From the NCBI GenBank assembly GCA_038127595.1, contig JAYPIC010000039.1, forward strand, positions 958-16,007: a DNA stretch of 15,050 nt. The letters run 5' to 3'. Shown piece by piece: positions 74 through 15,050 of this stretch. The translations under genes were made by a program, and so were the position numbers. Below the pieces are notes generated by a model. It was given only the letters and a program-made list of their open reading frames with translations. It did no database searches and was not told the DNA's origin. Source of the DNA: a bacterium. Lineage in GTDB: Bacteria; Fidelibacterota; Marinisomatia; Marinisomatales; UBA1611. Numbering within the stretch: the first letter of the stretch is position 1; each line of letters starts with the position of its first letter.

Positions 74-3000
74 TTATTTTTTCTTTATTCTGAATGTTTT
101 TATTTCAAATGGTTTTAGTTTTATTTTAAAATTACCCTTAACATTCTTTTTCGTACCAATATTTTTCTGTTCCATTAGGTTTGTTTCCACTAAACTCCCT
201 GTGAATTGAATATAACCCTCTGAATTTCTCCCAAGAGTTTCTACAGCTCTAATAATTAACTCATTATTAAACTCACTTTTTTTGATTGCTGAAATTTCAA
301 TTCCTTTTCCAATGAAATTTACCGGACTCTCAATAGATAGGTTCTCATAACCATCAAAAATTATAGGAGTATGATTTAATAAAGTAGATTCTTTAATAAC
401 ATTAGATCTTATTAGATCCTCTTTGTGTGGGTAAAAGCTATAAACAAAACTATGCCTGCCAAGATCTGCATCAGCATCAGGGTTATTGGGAGATCTCAAA
501 AGATTTAGATCAATAGTGTTATCCAATATGGAATAACCATATTTACAGTCATTCATCAGAGCTACTCCATAATCATTGTTTGAAAGGTCTGCAAATTTAT
601 GTCCAACGACCTCAAACTTTGCTCTATCCCAACTAGTGTTTTTATGGGTATTTCTTTTTACATAACCGTATTGTATATCGTAGGAGGCTTGCTCAGACTT
701 AATAATAGTGGGGAAATGGACCCTAAGCATTTTATGTTTTTCACTCCAATCGACAGTAGTATTGAAGTCTAGTCTCTTGGAATCATTAGCTAGAGTTATT
801 TTTTGATCTATTTTAGAATTTCCAATTATATATGAAATTTCTAAAGCACTGCATACATTTCCATTTACAACTTTATTGATATTTTTAATAGATGCTGTTT
901 CAAGAAGTGATTCCTTATAATAAAAATCAATATCCCATGCATCCCAATTAAGGGGTCTGTCTTCATAAAGAGATAGAACATTACCATCATTTTTAAGAAT
1001 ATTAAGTTTAATTTCCTTATCATAAGCAACCTTTAAGGTGCCATTATCATTGAATTCATACCTAACAAATTGATTTTCAAGTATTAATTCAGACTCATTT
1101 TTTGACTGTACCTTCATCTTTTCATCTTTTTTAAATGTTGTAAAAGAAAATGGTTTTAAATGGACATTAATAATTACTTGACCATTTAATATTTGTGTTG
1201 AGTAAGTATGTCCTTCATTCGAGGTGATGTTGTAGCCTTTGTAATCATTTGGAACTATTACTATACCTTTATAGCTGTAAGAAAGTGCATTAACAAGCAC
1301 AAATGATTCTTTTTTTCGTTTAAAAAGATTCGAAGCTGATTTCAGTATCAACTTATCGCAAATATCATGAATTTCATTATACTCATTATGAGTGTTTTTA
1401 TATACTAGATTAATACTGGAACCAGGAATTATATCGTGAAATTGATTTATTAATAATTTTTTCCAAGCATAATCAAGTTCCTCACTAGGATACTTTTTGA
1501 GTTCAATATTAGACCACAAAAACTCCACAGCTTTTAATTTAATCTCAAGTTTTCTATTTTGTTTTTTGACTAAACCATGTGTTGTTAGTGTGCCCCTATG
1601 AAGTTCTAAATAAAGCTCACCAACCCATGTTTCAAGTACAGATTTATTTTTATTTAGCCTTTTAAAGAAGTTTTTTGCTGTGTCAAATGATACCTTGGGT
1701 GCACCCTCAAGATTGTTTATCCTTTTTCCCATTTCAATATTTTCTGGTTTCGGACCGCCTCCACCATCTCCTACACCAAAAAGTGACATAAATTCATTTA
1801 ATTTATCTTTTTCTTTAAACGTTTCTTGAGCAGGCATAATAAATTTAGTGTCAAGCTCACTGTTGTATGTGTTTTCTGGTGGGAAGTGGGTAAGAATTTC
1901 CGTTCCATCTATTCCTCTCCAATTGAATGTTTGAAATGGAAAATCATTAAATTGGTTCCAAGATATCTTTTGGGTTAAAAAATAATCTATTTCAGCAAGT
2001 TTTAAAATTTGAGGTAATGCAGCAGAATAGCCAAACACATCAGGCAACCATAAATTATCTACATCTACTCCAAACTCTTTTTTATAGAAAATTTTACCAT
2101 AGAGTAGTTGTCTAACCATTGACTCGCCGCTAATAAGGTTACAGTCAGCTTCTACCCACATGCCACCTTGAAGTTCCCACTGTCCTTTTTTAACAGCAAT
2201 TTTAATTCTTTTATAGATATCAGGATAATAATCTTTCATGAATTGATAGTGCTGAGGCATAGAAGCACCAAAAACATAATCAGGATATCTTTCTATTAAG
2301 TCAAGCTGAGTTGCAAAGGTTCTAGCACACTTTCGAACAGTTTCTTTTACAGGCCACAGCCAACCTGTATCTATATGTGCATGTCCAACAGCGGCAACTT
2401 TTAACTCTGATGATGTTGCACGCTTGTTTAACTCTTTTTCTAAAATTTTTCTAGAAGCTAGAGCATCTTTTTTATCATCCTTAAATGCATTAGCAGCTTC
2501 ATTTAAAGTTTTTATTATTCTAAGCCGCTGTGTAGAATTATCTTCAAGTTTTTCTACTAGACCTAGAAGAATTCTTACATCTAAATGCAAATGCCAAATA
2601 TCTTCTCGGAAAATTCCAATATCGATTGTTTCAACCTTTGCATCAAATGTCCCATGTCTTTTTGGATTATCTTGATCAGGATCAGCATCTACAAATATAC
2701 CAAATAGTGAGTTTGCAGCTGTTTCTACCCACAATTCAACCTTGCTATTTTTTATACAACTTTTTGGAACTAATACTCGAGTTCTAGCAAAATTTTGATC
2801 CCATATTGATGCATTAGTTATTCCTTGTATTTCTTTACCTTTTGGAGTGTAGACTAAACCTTCACCAGAGAAATCAAGATCGACAATAATCTGTTTTCCA
2901 CGCCACTCTTTTTTGATATTTCCTGTTAGGTGGAACCAAGCGCTTTCCCACTCCTTTCCCCAAGATTTACCTTTTTTTATGTTTTTATATTTAAGTTTAT

Positions 3001-3142
3001 TTCTATTTGCAAAAGGAACGGCTTCTTTTGACCATCCATATTTTGCTGAGAGTGGAGTCCTATCCTCAACAAAATAGCCCAACATCCTAGAATACCATTG
3101 CTCAATTCGTGATACAATTATTTCAGTCTCTTTTTTGTTCAA
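74..3142 (-). CDS. Alpha-mannosidase, glycoside hydrolase family 38 (class IIC, MAN2C1/Ams1-like), no signal peptide
   Basis: 1022 aa. Motifs GHAHIDTGWLWP (Zn ligands), WLPDVFGYS (nucleophile Asp), GDGGGGP, WVGELYLELHRG and NQFHDIIPGSSI. TTG start with AAGGAA (3151-3156, minus strand) 8 nt upstream. Confidence 0.96.
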   Translation of the reverse strand: MNKKETEIIVSRIEQWYSRMLGYFVEDRTPLSAKYGWSKEAVPFANRNKLKYKNIKKGKSWGKEWESAWFHLTGNIKKEWRGKQIIVDLDFSGEGLVYTPKGKEIQGITNASIWDQNFARTRVLVPKSCIKNSKVELWVETAANSLFGIFVDADPDQDNPKRHGTFDAKVETIDIGIFREDIWHLHLDVRILLGLVEKLEDNSTQRLRIIKTLNEAANAFKDDKKDALASRKILEKELNKRATSSELKVAAVGHAHIDTGWLWPVKETVRKCARTFATQLDLIERYPDYVFGASMPQHYQFMKDYYPDIYKRIKIAVKKGQWELQGGMWVEADCNLISGESMVRQLLYGKIFYKKEFGVDVDNLWLPDVFGYSAALPQILKLAEIDYFLTQKISWNQFNDFPFQTFNWRGIDGTEILTHFPPENTYNSELDTKFIMPAQETFKEKDKLNEFMSLFGVGDGGGGPKPENIEMGKRINNLEGAPKVSFDTAKNFFKRLNKNKSVLETWVGELYLELHRGTLTTHGLVKKQNRKLEIKLKAVEFLWSNIELKKYPSEELDYAWKKLLINQFHDIIPGSSINLVYKNTHNEYNEIHDICDKLILKSASNLFKRKKESFVLVNALSYSYKGIVIVPNDYKGYNITSNEGHTYSTQILNGQVIINVHLKPFSFTTFKKDEKMKVQSKNESELILENQFVRYEFNDNGTLKVAYDKEIKLNILKNDGNVLSLYEDRPLNWDAWDIDFYYKESLLETASIKNINKVVNGNVCSALEISYIIGNSKIDQKITLANDSKRLDFNTTVDWSEKHKMLRVHFPTIIKSEQASYDIQYGYVKRNTHKNTSWDRAKFEVVGHKFADLSNNDYGVALMNDCKYGYSILDNTIDLNLLRSPNNPDADADLGRHSFVYSFYPHKEDLIRSNVIKESTLLNHTPIIFDGYENLSIESPVNFIGKGIEISAIKKSEFNNELIIRAVETLGRNSEGYIQFTGSLVETNLMEQKNIGTKKNVKGNFKIKLKPFEIKTFRIKKK

Positions 3143-3199: not shown

Positions 3200-5521
3200 T
3201 TAAATAGGAGAACCTTCCATTTGTTCTTCAAGTTTTCGTGCAACTGAAAGAAATTCATTAGTGTTCATTTCCTTTAAGTTTACGGCTCCATGGACAGCTC
3301 TTAAATGGGGATTTTTATTTTCATACCAATAGTCTCTTCCTAAAAGTAATTGCAGCTCTTTATGCTGTTCTACCCAAATATTCTGCGAAAGATCGCTAAA
3401 TGGTCCATCAAATTCATAACTAGGAAAAGAAGCTTCCTTTTGACTAAGGTAGCAATTATTAAAGGTAGAACGCAAAATCGACATTGAGTTTAATGTAACA
3501 GGAACTATGATATCTGCTTCATATAGATCAAACCTGTACCAGACATTACGATATCCCCAAATACGTAAATTTGAAAGATCTTCATTTTTACTCCAAATAC
3601 GTACTGCTTCTGCGATCGTTTGTAAAACTTTGTAGTGAGTATCTGGACCGCTCCCTTCAGGGTCAAAAGCAACGGAAATTACTGTTGGCTTAATAGCCTT
3701 TAACTGTTCTAATACAGGGAGTACATCTCTATTTATTTCAGGGTTTTCAGTAAAAACATCTCCTTTATAGAAACCCAAGCGTAAATGATGAATATCAGCA
3801 ACACGAACTCCAAAATTAGCCCAAACTAGTTCTTCCTCATATTCCCTAATCATTCCCTTAAGGCTTTGTACCTCTTTAGAGTTTTTCTCACCATCATAGT
3901 AATTATTTATCTCAGAAGTGATTTTTTCAATAAGTGTAATAAGTTCTGTTTTGCTACTAACGCCATAGATTTCAATTAAAGCTCTAACAAGTCTATGTGA
4001 CATTCCACGCTTTTGTTGTTCAGTATCGTTTCCTGCAATTGAGTCTAGATAATGAAATACATCTTTGTCCCATTTATCTTTATAACCACTACTAAAAAAA
4101 TCGTCAAACCTAATCATTTGAATTTGATCATCAATCAAGAAGGCCTTGGTATCATTTAGTAGGTTCTTTATAAAATCATTTGTTACTGAGGTAAAACCAG
4201 ATGTCATGTTTACAAAATGATGATAATTGCTTGGCTCTCTTATTAACTGAATGATATAAGGCATTAATCCTAACATGATATCATCATGGTGAGGTCCAGT
4301 ATGATAAAAAATTTGATCTGTCTCTGATTTGGATCCTTTTAGGACTTTTTGTTCTACGGCATTTATAACACCAGGAACAGTATTTTTATCTAAATTTGGA
4401 ATGTTTTTACAATGGATATCTTTTTGTAAATCTTCCAGCTCTAGTTTTTTCCCAAAAACATTAATTTTTTTAGATAATTCTAAAATTGATCGTTGAAGTT
4501 TTTGATCGTCCCAAATTCCATTATTCCAATAATCATTTTCAGAATCGGTAAGAGCTTTTGATGCACCTTTCGTAATGTAGAAGCAGCTGTTTTCTAGTTT
4601 AGATAAGGACGTAGCTGGATACTTGACATCGGGCTCGTTTTCAAGTGACTTTTTTATTATTTTTGCTTTTGCTTCACCCGCTGCAATTATAATGCCTGTA
4701 GCCCCTGGGTTATGGGTAATTGTACCTAATCCAATAGTGATGACTAGCCTATTTCTGCTAATCTCAATACCGCCAAGATCAGTTGCTGCTGCTGCTTGGG
4801 TTTCAAAGTTTGTTGTGGTAAGTCTTGTGGTTGAATTATGATCCGAGCCTCTAACATTAAAGGCTATGTGTCCGTCTGGCCCAATACCTCCCAGAAAAAA
4901 GCCAATGCCGCCCATAGAACGAATTTTATCTTCATAATCAGCACACCATTGATCAATTAAAAATATTGACTCTTGTTGTATTTTCTCATGTTCATTTTCT
5001 GCATCTCTAAAGCGAAGAGTTAGGTCAACTATATTATCAGGAAAGACAGTTTTTCTATCATTATTTTCAAAAAGGGGAATGTCGTCTGAATTAATAAGTA
5101 ATGCGTTATCATAGCTTAATCCAAATCCATCCAAATAATATTTGCATACATAGTTATAAAAGCTATTGTGCTGTTTTGGATTTAATGGGTAAAACTCATC
5201 AATTTGTACAAACTTTAATTTAGAAAGGTCTGGTTTTTCTCTTATTTGAAGCCCATTTCTATCTCTTATAGCTTTTACTTCCTTTTTACTCCAATTTTGT
5301 AGTAAATGATGAGTCCATTTAATAAAATATTCTGGAGTTTTTCCAGTAGGCAAACTAATAACTCCCTCAGGATAATCATATGCCCATTCTAAAAATCTAA
5401 GCGAGGTAATTAATCCAAGCTGGGGGAAATTATCTAAAACTATATATGGAATCTGTGATGTTTGATCTTTTATTGATTGTTGATCAAAAAAATGTTTTTC
5501 TACTGAACTAAACTTTTGCAT
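3200..5521 (-). CDS. nagB: Glucosamine-6-phosphate deaminase-like protein fused to a C-terminal PIG-L/LmbE-type de-N-acetylase domain
   Basis: 773 aa. NagB motifs LPTGKTP, QIDEFYPL and GGIGPDGHIAFN in the N-terminal part. The C-terminal half has the PIG-L-type metal motif GPHHDD (P410-D414) and a downstream GPDTH. Confidence 0.88.
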   Translation of the reverse strand: MQKFSSVEKHFFDQQSIKDQTSQIPYIVLDNFPQLGLITSLRFLEWAYDYPEGVISLPTGKTPEYFIKWTHHLLQNWSKKEVKAIRDRNGLQIREKPDLSKLKFVQIDEFYPLNPKQHNSFYNYVCKYYLDGFGLSYDNALLINSDDIPLFENNDRKTVFPDNIVDLTLRFRDAENEHEKIQQESIFLIDQWCADYEDKIRSMGGIGFFLGGIGPDGHIAFNVRGSDHNSTTRLTTTNFETQAAAATDLGGIEISRNRLVITIGLGTITHNPGATGIIIAAGEAKAKIIKKSLENEPDVKYPATSLSKLENSCFYITKGASKALTDSENDYWNNGIWDDQKLQRSILELSKKINVFGKKLELEDLQKDIHCKNIPNLDKNTVPGVINAVEQKVLKGSKSETDQIFYHTGPHHDDIMLGLMPYIIQLIREPSNYHHFVNMTSGFTSVTNDFIKNLLNDTKAFLIDDQIQMIRFDDFFSSGYKDKWDKDVFHYLDSIAGNDTEQQKRGMSHRLVRALIEIYGVSSKTELITLIEKITSEINNYYDGEKNSKEVQSLKGMIREYEEELVWANFGVRVADIHHLRLGFYKGDVFTENPEINRDVLPVLEQLKAIKPTVISVAFDPEGSGPDTHYKVLQTIAEAVRIWSKNEDLSNLRIWGYRNVWYRFDLYEADIIVPVTLNSMSILRSTFNNCYLSQKEASFPSYEFDGPFSDLSQNIWVEQHKELQLLLGRDYWYENKNPHLRAVHGAVNLKEMNTNEFLSVARKLEEQMEGSPI

Positions 5522-5575
5522 GTAGTAAATTATAATTCATATGTAGGCTATGATTGTTATCGTAAAAAAAAATAT

Positions 5576-5599
5576 TAGTATCTTAGTGTTAAGATAGTA
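5576..5599. promoter_or_regulatory. Palindromic operator candidate, copy 1 (TAGTATCTTA-gtgt-TAAGATAGTA), between divergent nagB-like and glycosylasparaginase genes
   Basis: Inverted repeat read directly from sequence. It extends to 13-bp arms over 5573-5602 with one mismatch. A near-identical copy is at 14618-14641. Confidence 0.75.
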
Positions 5600-5660
5600 A
5601 TAATTTATTATAGGTAACTAGGTTAATAATGAAAATTTTTTGTAAAGTTGAAATAATATT

Positions 5661-6614
5661 ATGAAGAGAAGAGAGTTTTTTAAAGCTGGTTTAATTGGGG
5701 CGACACTTCCTGCATTGACATTTGGTAATTCTGAGCTTAAAAGGAACCAGAAAAGTCCAGTGATAATTACTACTCATAACTTTCCAAAGGCCAATGCAGC
5801 TGCTATTGAGGTCTTAGAGAAATACGGGTCATCCATGGATGCAGCAGAAGCAGGGTGTAGGGCTATAGAGGCCGATGAAAATAATAGTAATGCTGGTATT
5901 GGTAGTTTACCAGATGAAAATGGCAGAGTAACACTAGATTCATGTGTAATGGATAGTAGAGGAAATTGTGGTTCAGTAGCATTTTTACAGAATATAGCTC
6001 ATCCAGTTTCAGTGGCTAGAAAGGTGATGGAAGATACAAAACACGTTATGCTTGTAGGGAGAGGTGCAAAAAAGTTTGCAATATCACAGGGTTTTAAGCA
6101 CACTAACTTACTTACAAGAGAGGGTAGAAACGCATGGATGGAGTGGAAAAAGACCAGAAAAGAGATGACTCCGCATGATACTCATGATACTTGTTCTACG
6201 TTAATTCAAGACCATAAAGGCGATATATCCGGTGCATGCACGACAGGAGGGTGGGCTTACAAAATGCATGGCAGAGTAGGAGATAGTCCATTAATTGGTG
6301 CGGGTTTATTTGTAGATAATAACATTGGAGGTGCAGCTGCAACAGGTTTAGGGGAGGAAGTCATTAAATCTTCTGGGAGTTTTTTGGTTGTAGAGCTAAT
6401 GAGACAAGGATATGACCCTGCATCAGCTTGCAAGGAAGCACTCGATAGGGTAATTAGGGCACATAATGGCAGTCCTGACTTTCAAATATGTTACATCGCC
6501 TTAAGAAAAGATGGTGAAGTTGGAGCAGCTTGTCTAAAATGGGCTTTCCCTCATTTAGTTACTATGAAAGGAAGAACTACTTTAAGAAGCATAAAAGGAA
6601 TTTTAGTTAAATAA
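5661..6614 (+). CDS. N4-(beta-N-acetylglucosaminyl)-L-asparaginase (glycosylasparaginase; Ntn-hydrolase, Asparaginase_2 family) with twin-arginine signal peptide
   Basis: 317 aa. Tat motif KRREFFK, then PDENGRVTLDSCVMD, HVMLVG, the HD/T autoprocessing site, ACTTGGWAYKMHGRVGDSPLIGAG and ATGLGEEVI. Confidence 0.9.
   Translation: MKRREFFKAGLIGATLPALTFGNSELKRNQKSPVIITTHNFPKANAAAIEVLEKYGSSMDAAEAGCRAIEADENNSNAGIGSLPDENGRVTLDSCVMDSRGNCGSVAFLQNIAHPVSVARKVMEDTKHVMLVGRGAKKFAISQGFKHTNLLTREGRNAWMEWKKTRKEMTPHDTHDTCSTLIQDHKGDISGACTTGGWAYKMHGRVGDSPLIGAGLFVDNNIGGAAATGLGEEVIKSSGSFLVVELMRQGYDPASACKEALDRVIRAHNGSPDFQICYIALRKDGEVGAACLKWAFPHLVTMKGRTTLRSIKGILVK
6174..6191 (+). repeat. Perfect 9-bp tandem repeat (CATGATACT x2) encoding HDT-HDT at the Ntn autocleavage site
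   Basis: 6174-6182 and 6183-6191 are identical and in frame within the glycosylasparaginase gene. Confidence 0.9.
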
Positions 6615-6638: not shown

Positions 6639-7394
6639 ATGAGTAAGATTTCAGAAGAAAATATTATTAGAATATTAAGCAGATTAGATGTGCCTGGTAA
6701 TGCTGCAAAAATATATATCTTTTTATTAAAGAACGGACCTTCAACTGGCTATGCTGTTAGTAAAAGGTCTGGTGTAAATAATGCAGTGGTTTATAGAGAA
6801 CTAGAGAGACTTAAAAATAGAAACTTAGTTTACCAGTTGGGAGTAAAGCCATTAAAGTATGAAGCAATAAATATGGATGGTTTGCTAAAAAATTTAAAAA
6901 AACAAAATAAGACTGAAGAAAAACTACTTGAAAAGTCCCTCAAGGATATTTTAAAAGATAATAAAAATTTAGTCTCAATAAGAATTGATGAATATGATGA
7001 TCTAATGGTCGAGATAAAAAAAGAGATTCTGGCTGCTAAAGAACAGATACTAATTAGGTTATGGTCTGAAGAACTGGAAATTCTTGAAGATGATTTGCGA
7101 AAAATGGAGGATAAAGGAGTAGATATACAGTTATTGTCATTCACACCATTAGAAAACCCAATTGGTGAGACATTTTCGTACAATATTGACCCACACTCTT
7201 TTACAGAAAATTGGCAGCGTGGAATAGCTTTATTCATTGATGAGGAAAGAGTAGTGGTTGGAAACAAAATTGGTAAATATCCAATCCATGGAATGCTCAC
7301 CAATGACCCGTTGATAGCAGAGTCAATCAAGGATCAAATATTATTAGATGTAGAGCTTGTAAAAAATAAAAGAGAAATGCGTAAAAAAAGGTAA
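6639..7394 (+). CDS. TrmB-family sugar-responsive transcriptional regulator
   Basis: 251 aa. N-terminal winged HTH (AKIYIFLLKNGPSTGYAVSKRSGV..AVVYRELERL...LV...PLKYEA), a coiled linker, and a C-terminal effector domain (ILAAKEQILIRLW...LFIDEERVVVG). Lies 24 nt downstream of the glycosylasparaginase gene. Confidence 0.88.
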   Translation: MSKISEENIIRILSRLDVPGNAAKIYIFLLKNGPSTGYAVSKRSGVNNAVVYRELERLKNRNLVYQLGVKPLKYEAINMDGLLKNLKKQNKTEEKLLEKSLKDILKDNKNLVSIRIDEYDDLMVEIKKEILAAKEQILIRLWSEELEILEDDLRKMEDKGVDIQLLSFTPLENPIGETFSYNIDPHSFTENWQRGIALFIDEERVVVGNKIGKYPIHGMLTNDPLIAESIKDQILLDVELVKNKREMRKKR

Positions 7395-7438: not shown

Positions 7439-8428
7439 TTAATAATACCTCGGCATATTTTCTAAAATATGATCCGCAAATCGTTGAAATCCTATGTCAT
7501 TATAGTGAATACCATCTACGGTAGCTTCATGATCTGAGCCTAGGCATCCATTTTGCCCAATTAAGTGCATGTCTTTAAAACCTAATTTTTCACATTCTTT
7601 TATTTCATTCAATAATAGTAAGTTTTTTTTTCTCACGTCTTCATCTATATACGCATCGTGCATTAGTGGTTGCTCAATGAAAGCTATAGGACATTGATTA
7701 ACATCATTTTTATTCCTTATAGATTTAACTAGTGGAATAACCAGCGATTTAATTTGCGTTATATTAACATTTGGAAGACAATCTATTATAATACATTTAG
7801 CATTCATTTTTGATAATATATCCCCAATTTCAGTTTCTAAATGTCCATTTCCACTAAATCCAAGGTTAATACACGGATGAATAGTTTTCCTTGATATAAT
7901 ATTTGTATGAGCCATTCCAGGCCTTGATGCGCAACCTCCCTGCGTAATGCTAGTTCCATAAAACACAATCGGTTTATTGTCATTTTTTATGAATTTAAAA
8001 TTACTATCATCATCTATGCCTATATTCAGATCAACTATAGAGTCATAAAGCGGGAGATAGAGGCATAAAGTTTTCTTATTTACTTCATTAAATTTTATTA
8101 AGTGTTCATTCTTATTGGAATTAGGCAGGCCAGTTGAAAGATATTTCCATTGGTCATTTACGCATTCATAAACATCTAGACCTTTAATACCAGCATCTGT
8201 CATGTGATTCATTTCAAAATCTAATTTTACTCTCCATTTAAGCTTGAGATTTTTACTATTTGTATTTAGCTGTATGCTTACACCCGCATTATTTTCTGAA
8301 AGATCCCAAACTTTTTTTCTAATACTATTTTTATACTTTTCAGGAAATCTTTGGAAGGGATATTTTCTAAATTCATTTGGCTCAATTATATTTTGAGCGT
8401 CTAAGGATTTTGGAGTGAAATATTTCAC
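7439..8428 (-). CDS. SGNH/GDSL hydrolase with N-terminal GxDLY domain (probable carbohydrate acetylesterase)
   Basis: 329 aa. GLDVY motif, block I FYGTSITQGGCASRPG, NLGFSGNG, DCLPN and catalytic DGIH. The GTG start overlaps the upstream TAG stop (TAGTG, 8426-8430). Confidence 0.88.
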   Translation of the reverse strand: MKYFTPKSLDAQNIIEPNEFRKYPFQRFPEKYKNSIRKKVWDLSENNAGVSIQLNTNSKNLKLKWRVKLDFEMNHMTDAGIKGLDVYECVNDQWKYLSTGLPNSNKNEHLIKFNEVNKKTLCLYLPLYDSIVDLNIGIDDDSNFKFIKNDNKPIVFYGTSITQGGCASRPGMAHTNIISRKTIHPCINLGFSGNGHLETEIGDILSKMNAKCIIIDCLPNVNITQIKSLVIPLVKSIRNKNDVNQCPIAFIEQPLMHDAYIDEDVRKKNLLLLNEIKECEKLGFKDMHLIGQNGCLGSDHEATVDGIHYNDIGFQRFADHILENMPRYY

Positions 8429-9201
8429 TATTTAATATCTTTTAAAATTGGATTTATAATGTCAATCCAATTTTGATAACCAAGATCATTTAAATGCACA
8501 CCATCAGTACTAAATTTGGGGTTTAGCTGAAGGTCTTCATTTAAAAAAGTAGAATGTAGGTCGATAATATTTAATGATAAGTTGCTCTTTAAATTTTTAT
8601 TGACTTCATTAATTTGTTCATTTATCGAAGGCGAGTAATCAGCATGAAGAAATTCAATATTTGGTTTCTCAGTTAGATACTGATTATTATTTATTGGGAT
8701 AATTGTTTGTGTATAGATTTTAGTGTTTGGCGATTTTTTATTTATGATATCAGAAATTAAGAAAATATTATTTGCAACATATTCCGGCGTTCTTTCTGGT
8801 CGACTTCGATTATCCTCAAACAAATCATTTACACCGATGAGTAAAAAAACCGCTTTGGGCTTATAATGTATTATCTCTTCTAATCTAGCTAATACACCAT
8901 CAGTATGATCTCCCGATATGCCTCTATTGACAATATTGTTACCTGACAACTTATCAGTATGGCGCAACAAACCTTGAGTGATACTATTACCAAGAAATAC
9001 TATTTTATTAAAGCCAACAGGAGAGACTTTAAACTCTGATAACTTTTTATGATAAAAATCTTTTTGCCAATCTTGCTGATATTTTATATTAGTATTTATG
9101 CTTGGGTATAACTCTTTTTCAACTACACTCATACCACCACCGCAATTAAAGAAAATTTGAACTACATATAGACAAAAAAATAATCTAAGTATAATATTCA
9201 A
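8428..9201 (-). CDS. SGNH/GDSL esterase, possible lipoprotein
   Basis: 257 aa. FLGNSITQG, NRGISGD, LLIGVND and DGVHLN blocks. Hydrophobic N-terminus ending in FFNC (possible lipobox). TTG start; the downstream Met (MSVVEK) is an alternative start. Confidence 0.88.
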   Translation of the reverse strand: MNIILRLFFCLYVVQIFFNCGGGMSVVEKELYPSINTNIKYQQDWQKDFYHKKLSEFKVSPVGFNKIVFLGNSITQGLLRHTDKLSGNNIVNRGISGDHTDGVLARLEEIIHYKPKAVFLLIGVNDLFEDNRSRPERTPEYVANNIFLISDIINKKSPNTKIYTQTIIPINNNQYLTEKPNIEFLHADYSPSINEQINEVNKNLKSNLSLNIIDLHSTFLNEDLQLNPKFSTDGVHLNDLGYQNWIDIINPILKDIK

Positions 9202-9220: not shown

Positions 9221-12200
9221 TTAGAAATTAAATCTAAAACCAAAATCTATAGTGCTACCATAATGTTGCTCTAGCGTTTTTGCACGACTTTTTACAGGTA
9301 TTGTACCTAGATGATCATCTATATTATCATAATTTTGTGATGTAAGGTCTTCATACATCTCAGTGGTAAATGATGGATCAGCTCGATTAAATCCTCGCTT
9401 TCGAGTTATGTCTATCGCCTCATTAAGGTTAGCTATGTTTAAGTAAAGCTCTAAACCATCGATAGGAAGTTTTTGTTTCATAGATAAATCATATCTTCTG
9501 TAAGCATCAGTTGTTTCTCGCATTTCAGGCCAAAAATTCGTTGAGGTAAATACATCAGACATATAAAGCATGGATAGCCTTCCAGAAAAACCTTTGTAAT
9601 CATAGCCTAATGAAAAATTAAATATCTCATTTGGTTGATCAATCAATCTGTCAACATAGAAACTGTCCACGTTGGTTGTGATGACTTGAAAAGAGGGTAC
9701 AAAAACAAACTCTTGTTTGATTTCTGTTCTCGGGTATTTTACTTCTGAGAAAGTCCTGGTGTAGTTAGCATTAAAAACAAGACCACTTAACATGCCAGGT
9801 AAATACCAAAAACGAGTCTGATAATCGATCTCAAAACCATTTAGATCAACTGGATAAGGGTTATTTGACGTATAATCAGCGATAATTTGTTTTTCAGTAA
9901 AGTGGGGAAGGTCATATAGTGAATCAGCGGCACCTTCAACAATGTACCTACGGCCGCTGCTGTAGATCAAACCTTCAATTTCTTTCGTAAAATAACTAAA
10001 TGTTAATAAGCCAAGCTTATCGTTGTTAAATGAGATAACATAATCCTTATTCGTAGATACACCTGGCTCGAGAAATTTATTTCGATAAAGAACTTGTCCA
10101 AAATTACCTTGGTAATTATAAAACGGAATAAAATCGGCATAACTTGGACGCGTCAATGTTTTTGTGCTAGCATACCTTAAAGAAAGCCAGTCAAAGGGGT
10201 CATACTTAAGGAATAAAGCGGGAAGGGAATGAGTATTAGTTCTTTTATGTGTATTTATAGTATCAGAACCAGCTGCACTAAAGTCAGGAAATGTACTTTG
10301 TATACCTTTATAGCTATTATAATTAGTCTCTATCTCTTCCGTTCTGCTACCTGCAATAACATTTAATTTTGAACCGATGTTAAAATCAACCATAGCATAA
10401 CTAGCATTATAATTTTCTGTACCATCATAATCAAATATTAAGGAATTAGTCGCGTGAAATTTGTGAAGTCTTTGTTCATGATATCCAGCATTATAGAAAA
10501 AGGCATCAGATCTAAATAAGTCTATTAAAGATCTCATTCGACCTAAGTCGGCGGCTGGCCCTATATCATATTTCCCGCCTAAAAAACCATCAAGATCATA
10601 ACTATCATCACTAAAAGCTTGATAATTAATTTGCTGAAAACCAGCATCAGCATACTCGTCTAGCCAATCAAAATGCACTATCGCAGAATCTCTACGTTCA
10701 TTTAAGGCAGAATTATTAGTTACCCAGGTAACTAATTCTTGGTTTTGATCATGGTCTCTTTTTTTGTCGCGTGATTTGTAACCAGCTTTTATTTTTCCAG
10801 ATATTTTATTAAATAAATTAAAATCATACTCAACGTTCATCCCAAATGAAGATTCTTTTTCAATCGTTTTATTTTCTCTGTAGTTAGCTCCTAACCAATA
10901 AGCAGAATTAGTATTATTTTTAGTATAATTTTGAATGTTTTCCACACTTTTCTTTAAAACTGATTCAGTATAGGCATCTTGTTCCTCAAATTCATATCTG
11001 TAATTAATACTATCATTTTTTGATAAAGAAAATGAGGTGTAAGCATCTAAAGTAAGATTATTAAAAAGTTTTTGTTCATATTTCCACGTTTCTGATATTA
11101 CGGTAATATCATTTTCACCTTGCCCTGTATTATAATATCTATCTTCAGCAGTTAGAGCATAAATGTCAGAATAGTTAATTTGGCTCTTGTCAATTTTACT
11201 ATTTAGGGCGGTATAGCTGATATTTCCTTGTGGAATGTTATAGTCAAATACAAAAAGATTATTACTACGATCATTTAATCTATTTATATCAGTTAGATAC
11301 ATATTTAAGAGTTGAAGTGAGTTTACAGAATCAAGATTGGCAGGTGCGTTATCATATCTGGCTCCTAGGTCATGTGAGCTTCTATTTCTATTCTCAAGAT
11401 CTAATTGAGCTAATACGCCTAATTTATTATTTAAAAATCTATTTCCTATTGTAGCAACATACTTATAATCTCCTGCCTCTTTATCTAGACCGTTATAGAT
11501 ACCCTGCGCAATTACATTTCCATGCAAGCCAGGTTTTGCCTTTTTAAGAATGAAATTTACGGTCCCTCCAAGAACATCTCCATCTTGATCAGGTGTACCA
11601 GCTTTGGTTACTTCAATTCCTTCAAGCATATATTGAGATATCATACTTATATCAGTGCTCCTATTATTTGGATCTGTAGAGGCTAAGTTTGTTCCATTTA
11701 CGGTAATTTTATTGTATTTGGGTGATAGTCCTCGAATGACTACTTTATTACCTTCACCACCTTCACGTCTGATGGAAACACCTGGTATTCTCGCTACAGC
11801 TTCTGCAGCATTAGATTCTGGTAATTCTTGTATTCTATCTGAAGATACAATATTCTTTATGGATTTTGCTTTAAGTTGTTTATTGATAGCATCCATTTGA
11901 CCTCTTGCTTGGGCAGTAACAACAACTGTTTTACCTTCGACTGTAGTATACTTTAAATCAAAATCAAGCTCGTATTTATCTTGATCTGAGATGGTAATCT
12001 CTTTTTTAATTGTTTCATAACCAATGTAAGTAACTTTTATTGTATAGTTACCAGGAGCAACATTAGAAATACTATACTTACCTGCATTATCTGTCGCCAT
12101 TCCCAGGCTAGTGCCCTCAATGATAACGTTTGCACCGATCAGTACATTGCCGTTGCTACTATCAGCGACAATCCCGGATATATTTGAGCTTTGCGATAAT

Positions 12201-12256
12201 GAAATACTAATTGTAAAAATAATTGAAAATGTTAATTTTTTAAGAAATGTTATCAT
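9221..12256 (-). CDS. TonB-dependent receptor with N-terminal carboxypeptidase-regulatory-like domain (not SusC-type)
   Basis: 1011 aa. Sec signal, GIVADSSNGNVLIGANVII...YTIKVTYIGY N-terminal domain, TonB-box-like VVVTA, plug (AEAVARIPGVS, IRGL, GIEVTKAGTPD..GGTVN) and C-terminal beta-signal DFGFRFNF. Confidence 0.95.
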   Translation of the reverse strand: MITFLKKLTFSIIFTISISLSQSSNISGIVADSSNGNVLIGANVIIEGTSLGMATDNAGKYSISNVAPGNYTIKVTYIGYETIKKEITISDQDKYELDFDLKYTTVEGKTVVVTAQARGQMDAINKQLKAKSIKNIVSSDRIQELPESNAAEAVARIPGVSIRREGGEGNKVVIRGLSPKYNKITVNGTNLASTDPNNRSTDISMISQYMLEGIEVTKAGTPDQDGDVLGGTVNFILKKAKPGLHGNVIAQGIYNGLDKEAGDYKYVATIGNRFLNNKLGVLAQLDLENRNRSSHDLGARYDNAPANLDSVNSLQLLNMYLTDINRLNDRSNNLFVFDYNIPQGNISYTALNSKIDKSQINYSDIYALTAEDRYYNTGQGENDITVISETWKYEQKLFNNLTLDAYTSFSLSKNDSINYRYEFEEQDAYTESVLKKSVENIQNYTKNNTNSAYWLGANYRENKTIEKESSFGMNVEYDFNLFNKISGKIKAGYKSRDKKRDHDQNQELVTWVTNNSALNERRDSAIVHFDWLDEYADAGFQQINYQAFSDDSYDLDGFLGGKYDIGPAADLGRMRSLIDLFRSDAFFYNAGYHEQRLHKFHATNSLIFDYDGTENYNASYAMVDFNIGSKLNVIAGSRTEEIETNYNSYKGIQSTFPDFSAAGSDTINTHKRTNTHSLPALFLKYDPFDWLSLRYASTKTLTRPSYADFIPFYNYQGNFGQVLYRNKFLEPGVSTNKDYVISFNNDKLGLLTFSYFTKEIEGLIYSSGRRYIVEGAADSLYDLPHFTEKQIIADYTSNNPYPVDLNGFEIDYQTRFWYLPGMLSGLVFNANYTRTFSEVKYPRTEIKQEFVFVPSFQVITTNVDSFYVDRLIDQPNEIFNFSLGYDYKGFSGRLSMLYMSDVFTSTNFWPEMRETTDAYRRYDLSMKQKLPIDGLELYLNIANLNEAIDITRKRGFNRADPSFTTEMYEDLTSQNYDNIDDHLGTIPVKSRAKTLEQHYGSTIDFGFRFNF

Positions 12257-12675
12257 AATTTAATTTTTTCTCCTTGCTCTAATTGTATTCCTAAATCAAT
12301 AAGTTCTGATTTTTTTTTATCCATAAGTTTTAGATTATTGCACTCGCTAGGTATGAACATTTTTGCAGCATGTCTTTTAAAACATGAACTAAGTAATTTT
12401 GTATAGTTTCCTGCTAGCCTTTGAATTTCTTTTTTTGTTTTTTCTTGTTTTTTTAATTCTTCAATACTTTTGAAAGCATTTCTTATTTCTCTTGCAATGT
12501 CAATAATTTCCATAGCCTCCTTGTGGCAACCACAGACATCTAATTTTGAGTATATATCTAGCGGTTTTTGAACTGGTTGAATAGATTTTTTAATAATTTT
12601 GTTATCTTCCTTACCGCAACCAGCTACAAAAAGTGTAATGTATAGAAGCGTTATGGTTTTTATTACTTTAGGCAT
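12253..12675 (-). CDS. Small Cys-rich, Lys-rich lipoprotein of unknown function
   Basis: 140 aa. Signal peptide with lipobox VAGC and four further Cys (CGC, SSC, SEC). Its stop overlaps the receptor start (ATGA, 12253-12256). Confidence 0.8.
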   Translation of the reverse strand: MPKVIKTITLLYITLFVAGCGKEDNKIIKKSIQPVQKPLDIYSKLDVCGCHKEAMEIIDIAREIRNAFKSIEELKKQEKTKKEIQRLAGNYTKLLSSCFKRHAAKMFIPSECNNLKLMDKKKSELIDLGIQLEQGEKIKL

Positions 12676-12742: not shown

Positions 12743-12781
12743 ATATGCGATTAAATTACATTAAATCGTCAGCTCAACAAA

Positions 12782-13255
12782 TTACTTCATTAGAGCCATT
12801 TTTTTCGTGATAGACGATGACCCATCAGTCAACGTGTAAAGGTAAATACCTGTTGAAACGTTGCTTCCTGCTTCATCACGTCCATCCCAGCGTAATACAT
12901 GAGTACCAGCTACTTTAGAACCGCTTGTAAGAGTTCTTACTTTTTGACCTAACATATTATAAATAGAAAGATCAACATTAGCTGCTTTATCTATGCTAAA
13001 TGTGATATCGGTAGTAGGGTTAAACGGATTAGGAAAGTTTTGAGCTAGCTCAAACTTAGCAGGGGTAATTTGCCCACCGTCAACACCCATTGTACTACTG
13101 GCCATCCACTCAGCTTTCTTATCTGGGAAGTTATTTAAGTCTCCCAATGGAAAACCACCATAACCATGTGTGTAAGCAACGGATGAAGTAGAGTAGGTAA
13201 AATCCATTGGTAATGGCCACTCGACTACTTCATAGTTGCCATCAGCTTGATGCAT
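12782..13255 (-). CDS. C-terminal fragment: WPLP/GFPLGDLNxFP segment plus FlgD-Ig/T9SS type-A-like sorting domain
   Basis: FELAQNFPNPFNPTTDITFSI...IYNMLGQKVRTL...WDGRD..G..VSTGIYLY...TKKMALMK. The frame is open 20 codons upstream of the Met (ILSTDWLDNGVHDTHTDRAW). Confidence 0.7.
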   Translation of the reverse strand: MHQADGNYEVVEWPLPMDFTYSTSSVAYTHGYGGFPLGDLNNFPDKKAEWMASSTMGVDGGQITPAKFELAQNFPNPFNPTTDITFSIDKAANVDLSIYNMLGQKVRTLTSGSKVAGTHVLRWDGRDEAGSNVSTGIYLYTLTDGSSSITKKMALMK

Positions 13256-13277
13256 CCATGCACGATCAGTATGAGTA

Positions 13278-14585
13278 TCATGTACTCCATTGTCTAACCA
13301 GTCTGTAGATAGGATCTAAGTTCCAACCTAAATCATCTCCTGCATAAATATTAGCTTCTTGAAAAACACCGTTTGCATATTGAGCTATAGTAGAATCGCC
13401 TACCCATTTGCTTTGTCCTGCAATCATTGTATCACAAAGTGAAACAACATTACCGCTAGCATCTGTAGAGTCATTTCCATCAGCGCCTTTTAGGTTCCAG
13501 CACCATGGATCCATATTAAACATAGCATGAAGTTCTGGTGTGTCTTTCCATCCGTTACGTTGGTATCGAATGTTTCTGTTATTATTATCCCAACACCATT
13601 GATTACCGGTAGCAGCTTCATTAGCTAAATTTGTACTATCAGTACACTCGCCCTGGTATAGAGTAGCCATTTTACCATGGCCATTTTCTCTATCATTATT
13701 CAATGAGATATTGGTGTTATCACCATTTCTTGTCTGACCATTTGCAGCTACATTGATAAATAGATTGTTTGTCCAATATGTGTTATTACCATGGCGGTAA
13801 AATTTTGGCCAATCAATAATATTTACAAAAGTGTTGTGATCAATTTCAATTACCTCATCTGGAGTTCTATCAACCAAACCGTTATCATAAATAACAAAAG
13901 CCTGGCCATGAGCACCTTCAATAGTATTGTTCTGGATTTTTAGTGAGTTCAGAGTACCAGTCCAGGCTCCACCGCCCCAAAAGAAACCACCGAAATACAT
14001 ACCAGCAGGATAGCATGAGTATTGTACCGCTTTACAGTTTTCAATTACCCAATCTTCTTGTTTACCAAAATTCCAATATGTTATTACCTCACTATGAACT
14101 GAAGTAACTCCATCCACATGAATGCTGTTGCGGTTTCCATAGGTAGCTAATACACCATGAAGTGTACCGCTTCCACCAGCAAAAACACCATTAAAAAGCA
14201 GATTTGCTATTTTATATGATTGATCATCGCCATAGGTTTTGATACTACCGGCAGGCCAGTATGCATTAAACTGTGATGCACCATCCGCACCTAAAATAGG
14301 TTTTATTTCTGCAGGACGAGAACCATCAGCATATGGAGCACCAATGACCTCACAGCTAGAATTAAGAATTAAGGTTGACTGCTGCAGGTATACTTTATTT
14401 GACTCAAGCATGTAAACATCATGAGCTTGCGTACCATCAGCAGAAGTATCAGCCATAATAGTGTTTTCAAATTCACCAGGTGCACCTGTCCATGTAACTA
14501 CCAATGTATCGGCAGCGGACAAAGTTGCAACTGAAATTAAAACACAAAAGCTGAGAATAAATCGATTTGATAGCAATTTTATCAT
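13278..14585 (-). CDS. N-terminal fragment of the secreted protein; signal peptide plus Asn/Gly/Trp-rich, probably parallel beta-helix domain
   Basis: Signal peptide ending TLSA-ADT. Beta-helix-like strands (IENCK, IQNNTIE, IDHNTFVN, WTNNLFIN). SD-like AAGGGA about 9 nt upstream of the ATG. Confidence 0.72.
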   Translation of the reverse strand: MIKLLSNRFILSFCVLISVATLSAADTLVVTWTGAPGEFENTIMADTSADGTQAHDVYMLESNKVYLQQSTLILNSSCEVIGAPYADGSRPAEIKPILGADGASQFNAYWPAGSIKTYGDDQSYKIANLLFNGVFAGGSGTLHGVLATYGNRNSIHVDGVTSVHSEVITYWNFGKQEDWVIENCKAVQYSCYPAGMYFGGFFWGGGAWTGTLNSLKIQNNTIEGAHGQAFVIYDNGLVDRTPDEVIEIDHNTFVNIIDWPKFYRHGNNTYWTNNLFINVAANGQTRNGDNTNISLNNDRENGHGKMATLYQGECTDSTNLANEAATGNQWCWDNNNRNIRYQRNGWKDTPELHAMFNMDPWCWNLKGADGNDSTDASGNVVSLCDTMIAGQSKWVGDSTIAQYANGVFQEANIYAGDDLGWNLDPIYRLVRQWST

Positions 14586-14617
14586 ATTGATTTTCCCTTC
14601 TTGTTTTGTTTTTTTAT

Positions 14618-14641
14618 TAGTCTCTTAAGCTTAAGATACTA
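14618..14641. promoter_or_regulatory. Palindromic operator candidate, copy 2 (TAGTCTCTTA-agct-TAAGATACTA), with an extra half-site AGTATCTT at 14650-14657
   Basis: Same arm length and spacing as 5576-5599, with 18 of 20 arm positions identical. Both copies are preceded by TAT. Confidence 0.75.
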
Positions 14642-14664
14642 AATTAATCAGTATCTTCTAGTAC

Positions 14665-14693
14665 ATATTAAACACTTTTTGTAATGGCATCAA
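14665..14693 (-). promoter_or_regulatory. Putative sigma70-type promoter for the secreted protein/receptor unit
   Basis: Minus strand TTGATG (14693-14688), 17-nt spacer, TAATAT (14670-14665). The predicted start near 14658 abuts the operator half-site. The AT-rich context lowers certainty. Confidence 0.5.
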
Positions 14694-14726
14694 CATTTTT
14701 ATTTATTTGATTTATGTTAGGATTAA

Positions 14727-15050
14727 ATGAGAAATAAGTTAGAATTAAGTATCCATAAAAACTGGACTTTTAGGAAAGTCTCTGATCAAAAATGGTATCA
14801 GGCACAGGTCCCTGGGTGTGTTCATACTGACTTGTTGAAAAATGATATCATTCTTGACCCATTTTATGGGACTAATGAAAAAGATCTTCAATGGATATCT
14901 GATGAAAACTGGGAGTATAAAACAAATTTCAATGTAGATAACGAATTTTTAAACAGGGAAGTGCAACTTCTAAAATTTTATGGTTTAGATACTTACGCAA
15001 AAGTTTACGTGAATGGAAAATTACTAATAGAGTCAAATAATATGTTTCAT
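14727..15050 (+). CDS. Beta-mannosidase, glycoside hydrolase family 2 (5' part; runs off the window)
   Basis: ATG at 14727 with AGGA just upstream. 108 open codons: MRNKLELSIHKNWTFRK...AQVPGCVHTDLLKNDIILDPFYGTNEKDLQWI...WEY...FYGLDTYAKVYVNG...SNNMFH, the typical GH2 beta-mannosidase N-terminal domain. Confidence 0.92.
   Translation, partial: MRNKLELSIHKNWTFRKVSDQKWYQAQVPGCVHTDLLKNDIILDPFYGTNEKDLQWISDENWEYKTNFNVDNEFLNREVQLLKFYGLDTYAKVYVNGKLLIESNNMFH

Follow-up and report, generated by a model that had tools for sequence, protein, structure and literature searches.

Two 24-bp palindromes in a 15,050-nucleotide stretch of bacterial DNA, here called the window, are very probably operators of the TrmB-family regulator encoded at 6639-7394, a predicted dimer that is likely to repress four divergent transcription units, including that of its own gene. 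This reading, which the initial annotation had proposed, finds support at the level of sequence comparison: the sites are conserved, motif and recognition helix change together between the paralogs, and where trmB was not found the sites have mostly decayed. A local repressor acting on a palindrome is an ordinary kind of mechanism; the motif and the regulon appear to be new, and the points of interest are the pair of paralogs and the missing sugar pocket. Our literature search, with subscription papers and the regulon databases RegPrecise and CollecTF outside its scope, found no described operator or regulon of a bacterial TrmB-family protein, and no description of this palindrome or of a Marinimicrobia TrmB regulon.

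The palindromes and their locus

The genes, candidate operators and predicted promoters of the window are as follows.

74..3142, minus strand: GH38 alpha-mannosidase (five Pfam GH38 domains)
3200..5521, minus strand: long glucosamine-6-phosphate deaminase-like protein, NagB-like (PRK02122 197.6 bits, under the cut-off of 384)
5554..5581, plus strand: predicted promoter TTGTTA-16-TAGTAT of the asparaginase-trmB unit (consensus match only)
5576..5599, no strand: candidate operator 1, TAGTATCTTA-gtgt-TAAGATAGTA, in the gap between the nagB-like gene and glycosylasparaginase-trmB
5607..5635, minus strand: predicted sigma-70 promoter TTTTCA-17-TATAAT of the nagB unit (consensus match only)
5661..6614, plus strand: glycosylasparaginase-like enzyme, first gene of the trmB unit (closest solved relative glycosylasparaginase, E 2.5e-88)
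6639..7394, plus strand: TrmB-family regulator, 251 aa, clade A, the predicted binder (PF01978 48.9 bits)
7439..9201, minus strand: two SGNH/GDSL esterases (Pfam)
9221..12256, minus strand: TonB-dependent receptor (Pfam, NCBIfam-type profiles)
12253..12675, minus strand: small lipoprotein-like ORF (conserved in the locus; without Pfam family)
12782..14585, minus strand: secreted protein with C-terminal sorting/Ig domain (carries a frameshift around 13303 in the assembly)
14618..14641, no strand: candidate operator 2, TAGTCTCTTA-agct-TAAGATACTA, in the gap between the secreted-protein/TonB-dependent receptor unit and the GH2 beta-mannosidase
14665..14693, minus strand: predicted promoter TTGATG-17-TAATAT of the secreted-protein unit (consensus match only)
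14727..15050, plus strand: GH2 beta-mannosidase, 5' part (Pfam)

As originally described, the two 24-mers each differ at one position from the perfect palindrome TAGTATCTTA-N4-TAAGATACTA, have different spacers, and occupy the only two divergent intergenic regions in the ORF map of the window (5522-5660 and 14586-14726). Two matches in the window compare with 0.01 expected, and none of 200 shuffles contained two. In the whole genome (G000; 2,002,980 bases on 133 contigs, 33% GC, 96% complete), these are the only matches with three mismatches or fewer, the next best having four, and arms separated by spacers of 0-3 or 5-8 bases gave no match at three mismatches or fewer. With two copies in 2.0 Mb, a genome-wide repeat of the REP or MITE kind is ruled out; a common genome-wide repeat was an outcome that the initial annotation had listed as refuting its reading. 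A clade-A matrix scan of the genome revealed no further regulon members, the scores falling from 28 to 11 bits, and a matrix built from site 1 alone gave operator 2 a score of 23.3 bits.

Site 1 is flanked on the left by the GH38 and NagB-like unit and on the right by the glycosylasparaginase-like gene and trmB, while site 2 has the secreted protein, lipoprotein-like ORF, TonB-dependent receptor and two esterases on its left and GH2 on its right. The product of 5661..6614 matched isoaspartyl peptidases at 1e-32, more weakly than glycosylasparaginase, and a full-length orthologue of the GH2 enzyme (in L045) matched beta-mannosidase 2VJX (E 4.5e-199). Judging from the functions of these families, the gene set looks like an N-glycan core scavenging cluster, with activities that fit the core Man-beta-1,4-GlcNAc-GlcNAc-Asn. 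The orthologous nagB-like gene of genome G007 (L045:6570-8895) is split into two ORFs, and is whole in the near-identical contig L111.

The frameshift in the secreted-protein gene is an assembly slip or a strain-level lesion, because four DNA and two RNA runs carry 26 extra letters at 13303 and relatives have a single ORF of 587-662 aa. Long contigs covered this gene (12764-14644) in all four RNA runs, and two RNA contigs ended at 12764-12775, shortly beyond its stop codon. The 435-aa N-terminal part of the protein matched no Pfam or NCBIfam family; the protein is possibly abundant and, as a member of a family outside these collections, may bind or cut glycans.

The 251-aa regulator has a winged helix-turn-helix domain (PF01978 48.9 bits, above the cut-off of 25.6) with the clade-A recognition helix GVNNAVVYRE, in which Y52, invariant in clades A and B, aligns with Y50 of Pyrococcus furiosus TrmB (3QPH). 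Its predicted model (mean pLDDT 79.7) comprises the winged helix-turn-helix, a coiled-coil helix and then the effector-domain alpha/beta fold, a phospholipase-D-like domain; it matches 5BPD, 3QPH and 2F5T, with TrmBL2 and TrmB closest. The profiles for sugar-sensing TrmB and TrmBL1 (NF040851, NF047390) scored 54.6 and 44.2 against cut-offs of 600 and 650, and the C-terminal sugar-binding subdomain of archaeal TrmB is absent. In archaeal TrmB of about 340 aa, residues N305, G320, M321, V324, I325 and E326 bind sugar, and the subdomain absent here carries six of the seven sugar contacts (PMC4158304, accessible part). W142, E145, F168, Y181, W192 and D201, which are common to clades A and B, form a possible alternative sugar pocket. 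A TrmB 86% identical to the protein comes from Candidatus Neomarinimicrobiota, which places the host among the Marinimicrobia.

Conservation, a sister regulator and natural losses of trmB

Among 400 further genomes of the phylum, three (G006, G007, G327) contained clade-A orthologues, and 63 metagenome contigs, many of them partial, carried others. Orthologous loci retain both palindromes even where TrmB identity falls to 55%, bearing out their expected conservation ahead of orthologous genes, and in loci of at least 2.5 kb with trmB on the contig, a site is present in every spanned nagB/asparaginase or secreted-protein/GH2 gap. The conserved arms and variable spacer noticed in the two original copies recur across these loci, with majority-base fractions of 0.85-0.94 in the arms, 0.54-0.65 in the spacer and 0.58-0.59 in the flanks, computed from 30 sites that were picked by likeness and are thus partly selected, two of them from loci without intact trmB. 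The inner core CTTA-N4-TAAG is invariant across sites, with C7 and A10 in 60/60 half-sites. When inverted dyads in non-coding DNA were counted without a seed, TCTTA-N4-TAAGA came out as the top 5-base dyad; it was present in 15 of the 16 clade-A loci used, which had been selected because they span a divergent region. No site was seen in the available DNA of four of the 22 clade-A loci, namely L125, L127, L130 and L146 (rearranged); L127, with GH2 divergent from trmB, has nothing above 3 bits. The subclade at 64-67% identity has lost the site ahead of trmB. A loose pattern with two mismatches matched in 36 of 401 genomes, mostly as single AT-rich and often intragenic hits; it gave two matches in each of the four clade-A genomes and was otherwise uninformative.

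Some subclades have a second operator 32-33 bp, or three helical turns, to the right of site 2 (L121:13008-13063 and L129:10333-10388, 23-24 bits; L118:9614-9670, 14 bits), suggesting that two dimers might bind cooperatively there; the window has no such second operator. One genome from another family contains the whole clade-A locus (G327:C11:146000-165500, L067), near-identical to L138 on the tree, and horizontal transfer is a possible explanation.

The genome of the window encodes a second TrmB (266 aa, G000:C3:17444-18244), 28% identical to the first and with a different recognition helix, inside a starch/maltodextrin locus with GH77, phosphorylase and GH13 enzymes, a symporter and a TonB-dependent receptor. 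Beside the genes of its clade-B relatives we found the motif TAGTAACTCA-N4-TGAGTTACTA, which has the same 10-4-10 geometry as the clade-A palindrome and shares its outer TAGT...ACTA. The clade-B matrix picked out two sites in G000, both in the starch locus, at 26-27 bits, the next scoring 13. The starch locus (G000:C3:7749-28922; L170, L171) also encodes a 1313-aa protein without Pfam family and, after the TonB-dependent receptor, a PorV-like protein.

Comparison of 107 TrmB loci (22 clade A, 74 clade B, 11 other) separated the two motifs. The A site, at 14 bits or more, was present in 18/22 clade-A loci and 0/74 clade-B loci, and the B site in 56/74 clade-B loci, of which 42 served as training and 14 of the 32 held-out loci had a site, and in 0/22 clade-A loci; the 11 others had neither. 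Position 47 of the recognition helix is N in all clade A and P in all clade B, within the helix GVN[NSR][ASG] in the former and G[IV]PRS in the latter, and each operator arm differs by A6 (B) to T and C9 (B) to T. The two groups also differ in protein length, by about 20 aa, and in neighbouring genes, alpha-glucan for clade B and N-glycan for clade A. Among 61 genomes, the B motif occurred in 24/24 with a clade-B trmB and 5/37 without, a partly circular comparison in that the pattern was read from the same loci, and one among kin that are not independent; a reversed control (7/24 versus 10/37) showed no such split. Neither motif was found beside the TrmB genes of 10 other bacteria (Bacillota, Thermus, Vibrionaceae, Bradyrhizobium), where the best score was 7.1 bits, and a search within 2 kb of 12 PRSV-type proteins gave no third motif. 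Weak B-like sites of 10.8-13.4 bits were present in four of 11 longer upstream stretches of PRSV-type proteins.

The GH2/secreted-protein divergon also occurs in genomes, 69-99% complete, in which protein, family and profile searches found no clade-A trmB. Under a matrix built from site 1 sequences, scores at the site-2 position had a median of 23.3 bits (13.1-24.4, n=17) in loci with trmB-A and of 2.2 bits (-0.8 to 13.9, n=11) in loci without an intact copy, and the presence label changes three to four times on the secreted-protein tree (29 rows). G021, G022 and G034, without trmB-A, have no site; in the latter two the trmB slot is empty, and the asparaginase and esterase genes are direct neighbors. 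G011, G033 and G387 have no trmB at the slot that holds it in L130. Two contigs keep only the last 35 or so trmB codons together with a decayed operator (L167:5221-5340, L168:1222-1341). Two genomes with no clade-A trmB found depart from the pattern: G010 (84% complete) has a 13.9-bit site, and G001 (69% complete) a 23.3-bit site on a contig cut inside the locus, for which reason it was left out of the n=11 set. With these two exceptions, and apart from the four clade-A loci in which no site was seen, the co-occurrence of motif and TrmB orthologue proposed as a check was found, intact sites tracking trmB-A and decaying without it. Across these loci the regulator has been lost more than once, and its site has decayed while the enzymes were retained. 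The sites therefore have, with the exceptions given, the features of a transcription-factor operator, being intergenic, with conserved arms and a free spacer, and tracking a regulator.

Most loci without the regulator still show TAGTAT at the left and TAAG at the right, letters that may be constrained by a promoter or not yet reached by decay. Such a half-degraded palindrome, and the good sites of G001 and G010, would also be expected if a regulator encoded elsewhere (e.g., a GlcNAc-sensing LacI, GntR or ROK protein) bound the palindrome and trmB were a passenger, and a similar Xanthomonas N-glycan cluster is run by NagR according to the accessible text of PMC4173781. We consider this explanation unlikely, since full-strength sites track trmB-A over three to four branch changes, the sister TrmB has a sister motif of the same geometry, and, among the 30 asparaginase loci returned (29 from other genomes or G007), none of the 27 in genomes besides G000 and G007 has a non-coding site above 10 bits.

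Predicted promoters and proposed mechanism

The predicted start of the nagB unit would coincide with the right-hand boundary of operator 1, the -10 of the predicted asparaginase-trmB promoter sits in its left arm, and operator 2 would lie within the first 40 nt of the secreted-protein transcript, given the predicted promoter. The sigma-70 promoter scan returned 56 sites, fewer than the 70.8 in shuffles, and intergenic hexamers gave no clear signal for a promoter consensus of the genome. RNA contigs from two studies span site 2 and end at 14641 and 14644, where DNA contigs continue; being assembled contigs without readable start, strand or level, they give a weak hint in support of the predicted start. 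In the 55% subclade (L135, L137, L140, L141), the right arm of site 2 ends in ATTATA, a perfect TATAAT on the opposite strand, and the operator may therefore overlap a leftward -10.

The initial annotation had allowed that the symmetry might partly reflect back-to-back -10 elements. Such elements may explain the TAGTAT and TAAG that persist after trmB loss, and TAGTAT is the -10 of the predicted plus-strand promoter at site 1, but they do not account for the full symmetry. That promoter elements on both strands (TAGTAT or TAAGAT as -10) produced the palindrome with no protein operator at all is, we believe, very improbable: the invariant positions are those of the inner CTTA/TAAG (C7 in 60/60 half-sites), which decay without trmB, one subclade has TAAGCT in place of TAAGAT, the clade-B sister reads TGAGTT, which is not a -10, and, more weakly, RNA contigs of the leftward gene cover all of site 2. 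The extended -10 proposed at 5587-5595 (TGtTAAGAT) is present in its letters, but its TG is kept in only 2/18 orthologous site-1 sequences, and we rejected it. Least credible of all is an RNA hairpin in 5' leaders, acting in pausing, processing or translation control, for although site 1 folds at -9.7 and -7.3 kcal/mol (z -4 to -5) and site 2, which is contained in RNA contigs, at -6.5, the same letters stand at two unrelated places, the 51 departures from pairing comprise, on either strand, 44-45 true mismatches and just 6-7 G-U, only 2/10 positions show more than one Watson-Crick pair type, no terminator was called, and the features of an intrinsic terminator or conserved hairpin were not found.

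If the palindromes are TrmB operators, as we favor, TrmB would bind each as a dimer in the manner of archaeal TrmB, its two recognition helices entering neighboring major grooves and each reading one arm. The sites overlap predicted starts or follow them closely, so binding would block initiation; by these predictions site 1 comes right after the nagB start and covers the asparaginase-trmB -10, and site 2 falls in the secreted-protein leader. A sugar of the pathway, such as a Man-GlcNAc fragment or GlcNAc- or glucosamine-phosphate, would then release TrmB. Given binding, action by repression seems probable by analogy with the archaeal precedent and in light of the predicted promoter positions and RNA contig ends; the accessible parts of two reports describe archaeal TrmB as a dimer that occupies palindromes and, when these lie at or behind the start, acts as a repressor (PMC4158304, PMC2710871). 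The proposal is weakest with regard to the inducer and the pocket that would hold it, since the subdomain with which archaeal TrmB binds sugar is missing from this protein.

More tentatively, it is possible, at somewhat less than even odds, that Marinimicrobia carry two orthogonal short TrmBs per genome, one being a duplicate with a rewired helix (IPRSA to VNNAV) that shifted two bases per operator arm, took over N-glycan scavenging, and senses a Man- or GlcNAc-derived sugar via a non-archaeal pocket, probably the W142/E145/F168/Y181/W192 cluster of the phospholipase-D-like domain. If true, the rewired duplicate would reveal how the short TrmB proteins of bacteria encode their specificity, and would add a new ligand site to this group. 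Two short TrmBs with distinguishable operators in one genome make the DNA specificity and inducer sensing of the TrmBL2-length form testable, and the locus points to the N-glycans of glycoproteins as a food source whose use is regulated in this abundant marine lineage, which is uncultured.

Comparison with known systems

The regulator shares the winged helix-turn-helix, coiled coil and effector-domain fold of Pyrococcus furiosus and Thermococcus litoralis TrmB (3QPH), along with the conserved Tyr (Y52 versus Y50) and a local sugar regulon with a palindromic promoter site. It differs from these proteins in being bacterial and shorter (251 versus 338 aa), and in lacking the C-terminal subdomain that contains G320 and E326 (equivalog score 54.6 versus a cut-off of 600). 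Its operator is longer than and different from the Pyrococcus/Thermococcus TACT-N3-AGTA, and is associated with N-glycan rather than trehalose/maltose genes (PMC4158304, accessible part). The best fold match is Thermococcales TrmBL2 (5BPD, 5BOX; E 2e-10, 16% identity), a 264-aa protein with the same short architecture and no sugar-binding part, as the accessible part of PMC4158304 describes it. TrmBL2 has been described as a general chromosomal protein, whereas the TrmB of the window goes with two specific genomic sites.

By eye, the palindrome matched none of the published TrmB consensuses compared in the accessible texts (TACT-N3-AGTA; TGM TATCAC-N5-GTGATA; TACT-N7-8-GAGTA). The haloarchaeal TrmB (VNG1451C) motif TACT-N(7-8)-GAGTA, taken from the accessible text of PMC2710871, has the spacing of the clade-B core AACT-N7-GAGTT and agrees with it at 7/9 specified bases; the clade-A site ATCT-N7-AAGAT agrees at 4/9, a comparison made with the consensus string only. 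Haloarchaeal TrmB is portrayed in the same text as a global regulator, in contrast to the short protein and local two-site regulon of the window.

The gene content recalls the Xanthomonas campestris nix cluster, in which a TonB-dependent receptor and alpha-/beta-mannosidases for N-glycan use are linked to GlcNAc catabolism (PMC4173781, accessible part). According to the same portion of that report, nix is under NagR, which belongs to another family than TrmB, and the asparaginase lies outside the GlcNAc regulon. In the window, unlike Xanthomonas nix, the asparaginase appears from the gene arrangement to be co-transcribed with the regulator gene trmB.
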